NCBI RefSeq assembly: GCF_003334385.1
Contig: NZ_QOWN01000199.1
DNA length: 335 bases
Source of the DNA: Escherichia coli
GTDB taxonomy: Bacteria > Pseudomonadota > Gammaproteobacteria > Enterobacterales > Enterobacteriaceae
Direction: 5' to 3' (one strand)
Shown here: positions 1-335 of the stretch, in pieces
Position numbering within the stretch: position 1 is the first letter of the stretch
Layout of the letters: each line of letters starts with the position of its first letter
Made by a program: the position numbers and the translations under genes
Notes under the pieces: model-generated
What the model was told of the DNA's origin: nothing
The model's input: the letters and a program-made list of their open reading frames with translations, nothing else
The model's database searches: none

Positions 1-335
1 ACCACCTGCTCAATCGTACAACTGAAATCACTGTACCTGGCGTTATCTGTGACGCTCCACTCCCGGCACACCACCCTCACCGTCCGGTTATGTTTCGGTG
101 GTCGCCACAAAAAGGCACGGTAACCACCATGCCACGATAAAAATTCATCCAGCCAGCGCCGGGTTGGTTCATCCGTCACCCGGAACACCGCCTGAAACGT
201 CTTCAGTCTGGCATTAAGTCCCGTCGGTCGGCGCTGTTCATAACCGTCACCAAACCGAACCCTCACCACCGACGGTTTCTCACTCACCTGCATCCCTTCA
301 CGCGGGACCAGATGCAGCGTTTTTATCTCAGCCAC
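1..335 (-). CDS. M: Lambda-like phage minor tail protein M (tail-tip assembly protein, gpM homologue). 3' end truncated by the window edge at position 1, with a stop expected a few nt beyond. Start probably GTG at 333-335 or just upstream of the window.
   Basis: The reverse-complement frame beginning at plus-strand 335 is open for 111 consecutive codons, while the other two minus frames stop within 13 nt and the plus frames stop at 23-25, 121-123 and 136-138. The translation aligns along its whole length with lambda gpM as I recall it (MKTFRWKVKPGMDVASVPSVRKVRFGDGYSQRAPAGLNANLKTY...HGGWKSFLWTPPYEWRQIKVTCAKW...EFEQVVN), with about 40-45% identity by eye and one small indel. Shared motifs are GM.V..PSV..VRFGDGY.QR.P.GLNA.LKT, FL..HGG...FLW.PP, C..WS and FS...EQV. 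The plus strand is C-rich, so the coding strand is G/purine-rich, as is typical of coding sequence. Confidence 0.93.
   Translation of the reverse strand, partial: MAEIKTLHLVPREGMQVSEKPSVVRVRFGDGYEQRRPTGLNARLKTFQAVFRVTDEPTRRWLDEFLSWHGGYRAFLWRPPKHNRTVRVVCREWSVTDNARYSDFSCTIEQV
323..335 (-). CDS. Extreme 3' terminus (last 2-4 codons plus stop) of the upstream tail gene, presumably the tape-measure protein (lambda H equivalent). Frame is ambiguous: the stop is either TAA at plus 323-325 or TGA at plus 328-330.
   Basis: Inference only. The gpM homology begins at codon 4 of the open frame, and lambda's ATG position is occupied by ATA here, so M probably starts at the GTG at 333-335. Both alternative minus-strand frames terminate immediately (g-TGG-CTG-AGA-TAA and gt-GGC-TGA), which is what a tightly packed upstream gene ending here would look like. 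In lambda, as I recall, the H stop overlaps the M start (ATGA). Too short to verify by composition or homology. Confidence 0.25.

Follow-up and report, generated by a model that had tools for sequence, protein, structure and literature searches.

We are highly confident that the window, by which we mean the whole 335-nt stretch of Escherichia coli DNA analysed here, encodes on its minus strand a gpM-type distal tail protein of an E. coli lambdoid siphovirus prophage. This reading includes the role of gpM, its position as a ring in the tail, late expression, and coupling to the neighbouring genes H and L. No result spoke against it, and family membership, gene boundaries, synteny, purifying selection and prophage context were established directly.

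A gpM-family protein and the boundaries of its gene

The minus strand of the window is a single open frame of 111 codons, the translation of which (VAEIKTLHLVPREGMQVSEKPSVVRVRFGDGYEQRRPTGLNARLKTFQAVFRVTDEPTRRWLDEFLSWHGGYRAFLWRPPKHNRTVRVVCREWSVTDNARYSDFSCTIEQV) matched the Pfam family PF05939 (Phage_min_tail) with an i-Evalue of 6.5e-28 and 97.7 bits, residues 6-111 aligning to positions 2-107 of the 108-position model. The same protein fell into PHROG 14, “minor tail protein”, with E=2.4e-35. A phmmer search against PDB sequences matched chain M of 8iyk, the lambda “Tail tip protein M” (E=1.6e-24, query residues 5-111 on chain residues 2-107), along with further lambda M entries (8iyl, 8k35, 8xcg and 9e7m), and BLASTP against lambda M from J02459 gave 45% identity with E=1e-32. 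The only significant Pfam match covers the whole 113-aa protein, which therefore has a single domain with none added. No NCBIfam family was found at E<=0.001, a result that reflects the coverage of that library and is not evidence against membership of the Pfam family or likeness to the PDB entries. A preliminary description made from the window alone had named the product a homologue of the minor tail protein gpM and had expected BLASTP or HMM searches with the 111-aa translation to return the lambda gpM-like phage minor tail family, and both expectations were borne out by the Pfam, PHROG, PDB and BLASTP matches. A more distant solved relative is chain 6 of PDB 25vf, a 113-aa “MF2 protein” (E=2.4e-08) that has GGGYSQ…GLN and HGGYRSFLW motifs in common with the window protein.

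The resemblance to lambda gpM extends beyond family membership. The two proteins belong to the same length class (113 versus 109 aa), can be aligned end to end and both carry the conserved FGDGY-QR-GLN-LKT and HGG-FLW-PP motifs, and both genes lie between H and L with overlapping stop and start codons. The window protein differs in being 4 residues longer at its N-terminus and in starting from GTG, and the similarity of its gene to lambda M at the nucleotide level is limited to the last ~20 nt. Much closer are the Stx-converting and PPompW/PPyecE-type prophages of O157 and its relatives (Stx1a_11KH263, Stx1_14040, YYZ-2008 and JLK-2012), which are 92-99.4% identical over the whole window and have the same annotated gene with the same neighbours; the differences from the window amount to a few synonymous and 2-8 non-synonymous substitutions.

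In a window this short and with a G+C content of 56%, an open frame says little: one fully open frame also occurred in 9.5% of mononucleotide shuffles, so the gene call rests on homology and selection and not on the frame itself. The other five frames contain 1-12 stops (6 and 12 in the two other minus frames, 1-3 in the plus frames). Comparison with four alleles at dS 0.21-0.30 gave dN/dS values of 0.06-0.11, a clear signature of purifying selection on this frame, and on the strength of these values and the homology we set aside a chance open frame as an explanation. Other frames contain short ORFs (24, 31 and 39 aa); we gave these no weight, as the gene enclosing them is under purifying selection in frame -1.

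The window is 100% identical to L001:20001-20335, in a region of the E. coli EC2 chromosome where the annotated CDS occupies 20001-20342 and encodes a 113-aa “phage tail protein” (WP_000807940.1). Of this 342-nt gene the window holds the first 335 nt, and the last 7 nt (gAACTGA) lie beyond window position 1. The preliminary description had placed the window inside the tail module. The module was right, but the window is essentially gene M itself, with H reaching 8 nt into it, rather than an arbitrary internal piece (Table 1).

At the upstream end, a GGAGG Shine-Dalgarno sequence lies 8 nt before the GTG, outside the window and within H. A subgroup that is 67% identical to the window (733R4, PhiR49_2) has this GTG annotated as well, again overlapping H by 8 nt, and lambda H and M overlap too, by 4 nt. 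The overlap of the H stop with the M start (GTGGCTGA) suggests that the two genes may be translationally coupled. At the downstream end, just past window position 1, the M stop in turn overlaps the L start (TGATG) in the EC2 sequence, and lambda and the 67% subgroup are arranged likewise. The annotation of the M start is inconsistent between records: in phage vB_EcoS_phi330 (L006 143-442) M is annotated as a 99-aa protein from an internal ATG at codon 15, whereas the other records use the GTG. We rejected the internal ATG because GGAGG is placed 8 nt from the GTG, because the 67% subgroup also has the 8-nt overlap with the H stop, and because lambda M aligns from codon 4-5.

Table 1. Features located in the 335-nt window, in window coordinates.
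Feature	Position	Strand	Details and basis
gpM-like distal tail protein CDS	1..335	minus	codons 1-111 and two bases of codon 112, of 113; translation, identity to annotated CDS, Pfam/PHROG/PDB matches
GTG start codon of M	333..335	minus	sequence of L001:19941-20400
3' end of tape-measure gene H, last 8 nt	328..335	minus	TGA stop at 330..328, overlapping the M start (GTGGCTGA); CDS 16766-20008 versus 20001-20342
Most conserved family motif, codons 26-46 (VRFGDGYEQRRPTGLNARLKT)	198..260	minus	invariant alignment columns, windowed identity
Terminator-like hairpin GGCATGGT-GGTT-ACCGTGCC, then TTTTTGTGGC	104..133	minus (sense)	scan; within the WHGGYRAFLW codons
Start of lambda-similar block shared by co-resident prophages	1..13	minus	blastn of EC2 versus lambda, edge at L001:20323

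Tail-gene order and the state of the prophage

Synteny was assessed in contexts 100% or 99% identical to the window (L001, L004 and L005) against lambda (L002). E. coli EC2, E. coli S1-KEN-03-A and phage vB_EcoS-569R3 all have the order major tail subunit, G, T, tape measure, M, L, K (a C40 peptidase), I and J on one strand, which is the gene order of lambda. Since M is on the minus strand of the window, this order puts H on the side of higher plus-strand coordinates and L on the side of lower ones. The preliminary description had predicted this arrangement from lambda, with M between H and the tail-tip genes and both neighbours on the minus strand, and it agrees with what the identical contexts contain: the flanks there include the tape-measure and L/K/I/J homologues, and in EC2 an integrase as well.

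Relatedness to lambda is uneven across the EC2 module. By BLASTP, L, K, I and J are 78%, 87%, 66% and 66% identical to their lambda counterparts and H is 25% identical over its C-terminal third only, while the EC2 major tail subunit, G and T had no match to lambda V, G and T. PHROG profiles confirmed the roles of these three proteins and placed the tape measure in PHROG 339. Compared with lambda, the window-type M is thus paired with a tube protein and chaperones that are not lambda-like and with a longer tape measure (1080 versus 853 aa). Nor are the head genes that accompany the 100% identical copies of the lambda type in sequence (the portal has 861 aa and the capsid 645 aa). The chaperone genes G and T of EC2 (L001 16039-16718) are annotated as separate CDSs, and PHROG 14766 (224 positions) covers both of them, consistent with an unannotated G-T fusion product made by a -1 frameshift of the lambda type.

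The annotation of the EC2 prophage was read over 2949835-3020000, and that of S1-KEN-03-A was also read. In EC2 the module is surrounded by genes for an integrase, an excisionase, an exonuclease, a CI-like LexA-family repressor, Cro, replication proteins and a Q-type antiterminator, together with two tRNAs and genes for a holin, a lysozyme, an Rz-like lysis protein, terminase, portal and capsid, and ompW bounds the prophage on the integrase side. Given this set of integration, regulatory, replication, lysis and head genes around M, the element that carries the window's allele in EC2 is a lambdoid prophage. The earlier assignment of the locus to mobile or accessory DNA, and specifically to the tail-tip module of a lambdoid phage or prophage, therefore stands on both the tail-gene order and the prophage genes in EC2. 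F-type pyocins are built from lambda-like tail genes, and M might on that ground be proposed to belong to a head-less lambda-tail-like bacteriocin (an F-type tailocin) or to another domesticated tail machine; the list of Foldseek matches does include tailocin and GTA tail proteins, at weak scores. We consider this extremely improbable, as all inspected contexts have terminase, portal, capsid, integrase, repressor and lysis genes beside the tail module, and the closest phage records are inducible Stx-converting phages.

Prophages with the identical M allele differ in condition: one is apparently complete and another decayed. In EC2 all the morphogenesis genes of its prophage are annotated as intact. 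In S1-KEN-03-A (L004 3163-3696; 11190-13774) the lysozyme gene has an internal stop, the portal gene is frameshifted and the YdfR gene is truncated, and this prophage is probably defective. M in the source genome could likewise be intact in sequence and yet sit in a defective (cryptic) prophage, contributing to no virion. Many lambdoid prophages are defective, and similar copies number 2 per E. coli genome at the median and 7 at most, which together with the frameshifted portal and interrupted lysozyme of S1-KEN-03-A lend this scenario some weight; the intact morphogenesis genes of EC2, the unbroken frame and the low dN/dS of the alleles speak against it. On balance we think it rather unlikely, and even if true it would alter the state of the element and not the identity of the gene.

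The gene is widespread. Prophage genes annotated in at least nine complete E. coli chromosomes, those of EC2, SCU-104 and S1-KEN-03-A among them, match the window at 100% identity, and copies at least 80% identical are present in 1175 of the 5426 complete E. coli genomes, at 2820 matching places (six of these on plasmid records). Among phages, 91 records are 92-99.4% identical to the window, mostly Stx1a/Stx2-converting phages and “PPompW”/“PPyecE” prophages; the exact window allele was absent from the phage collection and was found in E. coli chromosomes. In phage phi467 (L012 121-492) the reading frame of the M homologue shifts after residue ~75 (…IRAFCGVRQNT…), so that a 123-aa ORF continues into L; this is either a sequencing error or a pseudogene. 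Gene M as found here is a known structural gene, already annotated, and the E. coli prophages that carry it are very common. The preliminary description had called it a well-known structural component and not novel, and rightly so, with a homologue solved at near-atomic resolution and annotated copies widespread.

The M/L junction, a probable inversion in EC2 and a hairpin within M

When EC2 was compared with lambda by blastn, the aligned stretch opened at L001:20323, corresponding to window position 13 and preceding the M stop by ~20 nt; from there it ran on across L, K, I and J at 75-78%. Two different prophages of EC2 also share a block that has its left edge at this coordinate, 8.4 kb long and 95.5% identical, and after it a second shared block of 5.3 kb at 99.9%. 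M is 45% identical to lambda M as against 66-87% for L, K, I and J, which makes the M/L junction a sharp mosaic boundary, and the shared edge places M on the diverged side of this classical module boundary, with the tube and the tape measure.

The two EC2 prophages (NZ_CP058571.1, about 2.19-3.01 Mb; L001, L003, L014 and L015) have mixed flanks. For the prophage with the window allele, ompW-yciC adjoins the integrase and yecD-aspS the tail end; for the second, the integrase is adjacent to yecE(DUF72)-yecN-cmoA and the tail end to an ompW remnant and yciE. These mixed flanks indicate a chromosomal inversion of ~0.7 Mb in EC2, which would have arisen by recombination of the ompW-site and yecE-site prophages within their shared L-K-I-J/fibre/cargo block. 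S1-KEN-03-A has the uninverted ompW arrangement. The cargo downstream of the tail-fibre genes consists of a YadA C-terminal-domain adhesin-like gene and a gene for a ~1335-aa S6-family (SPATE-type) autotransporter peptidase (L001 29170-35184; L004 29658-35658; L014 37165-43329). The cargo block is 99.9% identical between the EC2 prophages, and the autotransporter is annotated as two pieces in prophage A of EC2; in prophage B, which is lambda-type, the homologue of tail assembly protein I (L014 29716-30296) is annotated as frameshifted.

No repeats or promoter-like sites were found in the window. A scan for terminator-like sites returned two, versus 0.2 expected in shuffles, and the hairpin listed in Table 1 folds at about -13 to -14 kcal/mol. 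These two results would favour a functional RNA element, with the hairpin and T-run at 133..104 (sense) acting as an intragenic terminator or a small RNA. The hairpin, however, forms only in the alleles that are 92-100% identical and is absent from 733R4 and PhiR49_2 of the 67% subgroup and from lambda, and its stem is invariant among the close alleles, which leaves no covariation evidence for it. The sole Rfam match, obtained at a permissive threshold, was cyano_het_sRNA over the hairpin, at 17.9 bits versus a gathering score of 35.7 (E=0.34). The bases are moreover fully explained by the conserved peptide WHGGYRAFLW, and the late operons of lambdoid phages are transcribed by a Q-modified, terminator-resistant polymerase. 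We rejected the hairpin as a conserved element since it is not kept outside the 92-100% allele group, regard a role for it as RNA as very improbable, and judge it to be a by-product of the coding sequence.

The junction can also be read more speculatively, in a proposal to which we give only a small chance. The junction ~20 nt before the end of M (~position 13) might be a preferred exchange point, with the highly similar L-K-I-J/side fibre/cargo block that otherwise different co-resident prophages share driving both tail-tip swapping and large inversions, and M might serve as an adaptor matched to its own tube and tape measure. As a separate and weaker possibility, the hairpin in M might terminate non-antiterminated transcription before the tail-tip genes in lysogens.

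Predicted fold and proposed place in the virion

An AlphaFold2 model built from a shallow alignment of 8 sequences had a mean pLDDT of 62; residues 45-113 reached 70-86 and were predicted as strand-helix-strands, and residues 1-43 were below 50. With this moderate-confidence model as query, the sole Foldseek match in the PDB below E=0.001 was the lambda tail tip, 8iyk (E=7e-7, TM 0.56-0.58, rmsd 9.3). The next matches were a phage T1 tail-tip protein (9l9p_H) and the N-domain of lambda gpV, at 10-18% identity and E above 0.01, so that the likeness to these and to other siphovirus Dit and tube proteins is one of fold only. The predicted core and these weak matches agree with the beta-sandwich plus helix of gpM. 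Because of the moderate AlphaFold confidence this test is weaker than the sequence test, and the model is consistent with a tail-tube-like fold without being independent proof of it. The Dit proteins of many Gram-positive phages carry extra galectin-like or carbohydrate-binding domains, and the gpM type is a minimal single-domain version that lacks them.

In lambda, gpM has the same topology as the N-domain of gpV (PMC10721106). Cryo-EM of lambda shows that six gpM copies, with the tail-tube fold, make up a ring that binds the last gpV ring electrostatically through its beta-sandwich side, while the E-loops adopt two conformations and stack on a three-fold ring of gpL HDI and gpJ HDII domains (PMC10721106, PMC11101478). 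In Ur-lambda, a dodecameric side-fibre collar wraps the gpV-gpM junction and contacts K2, W6 and R80 of gpM (PMC12617516). The aligned positions in the window protein are K5, L9 and R84, and a side-fibre gene lies downstream of M in the EC2 prophage.

Identity to lambda M is distributed unequally along the protein, at 70% for residues 14-46 and 37% for residues 47-113 by windowed identity. We infer that the segment conserved across the family (VRFGDGYEQRRPTGLNARLKT) may correspond to the extended E-loop, the part stacked on the L/J ring, an analogy that stays provisional as the text of the papers gives no residue range for the loop and the motif is conserved family-wide. The diverged remainder would face the tube protein. 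As that protein and lambda V come from different sequence families, lambda offers no template for the contacts on the tube side.

Taking stoichiometry, virion position and contacts from lambda, we propose that six copies of the M product encoded by the window would form a ring with the tail-tube fold. Its extended loops would stack on the three-fold L/J ring, and by doing so the M ring would reconcile the six-fold symmetry of the tube with the three-fold symmetry of the tail tip. Where a phage has side fibres, M may also help to seat the fibre collar. M would be expressed from the late operon, with translation coupled to H upstream (GTGGCTGA) and to L downstream (TGATG).

For annotation, recognizing M is useful: the locus can be labelled as prophage DNA, and both the strand and the genes to expect on either side follow. 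What the present analysis adds is contextual: M lies just upstream of a recombination-prone L-K-I-J block in which E. coli prophages exchange host-range modules, and this same block is the route by which the ~0.7 Mb inversion of EC2 evidently arose.
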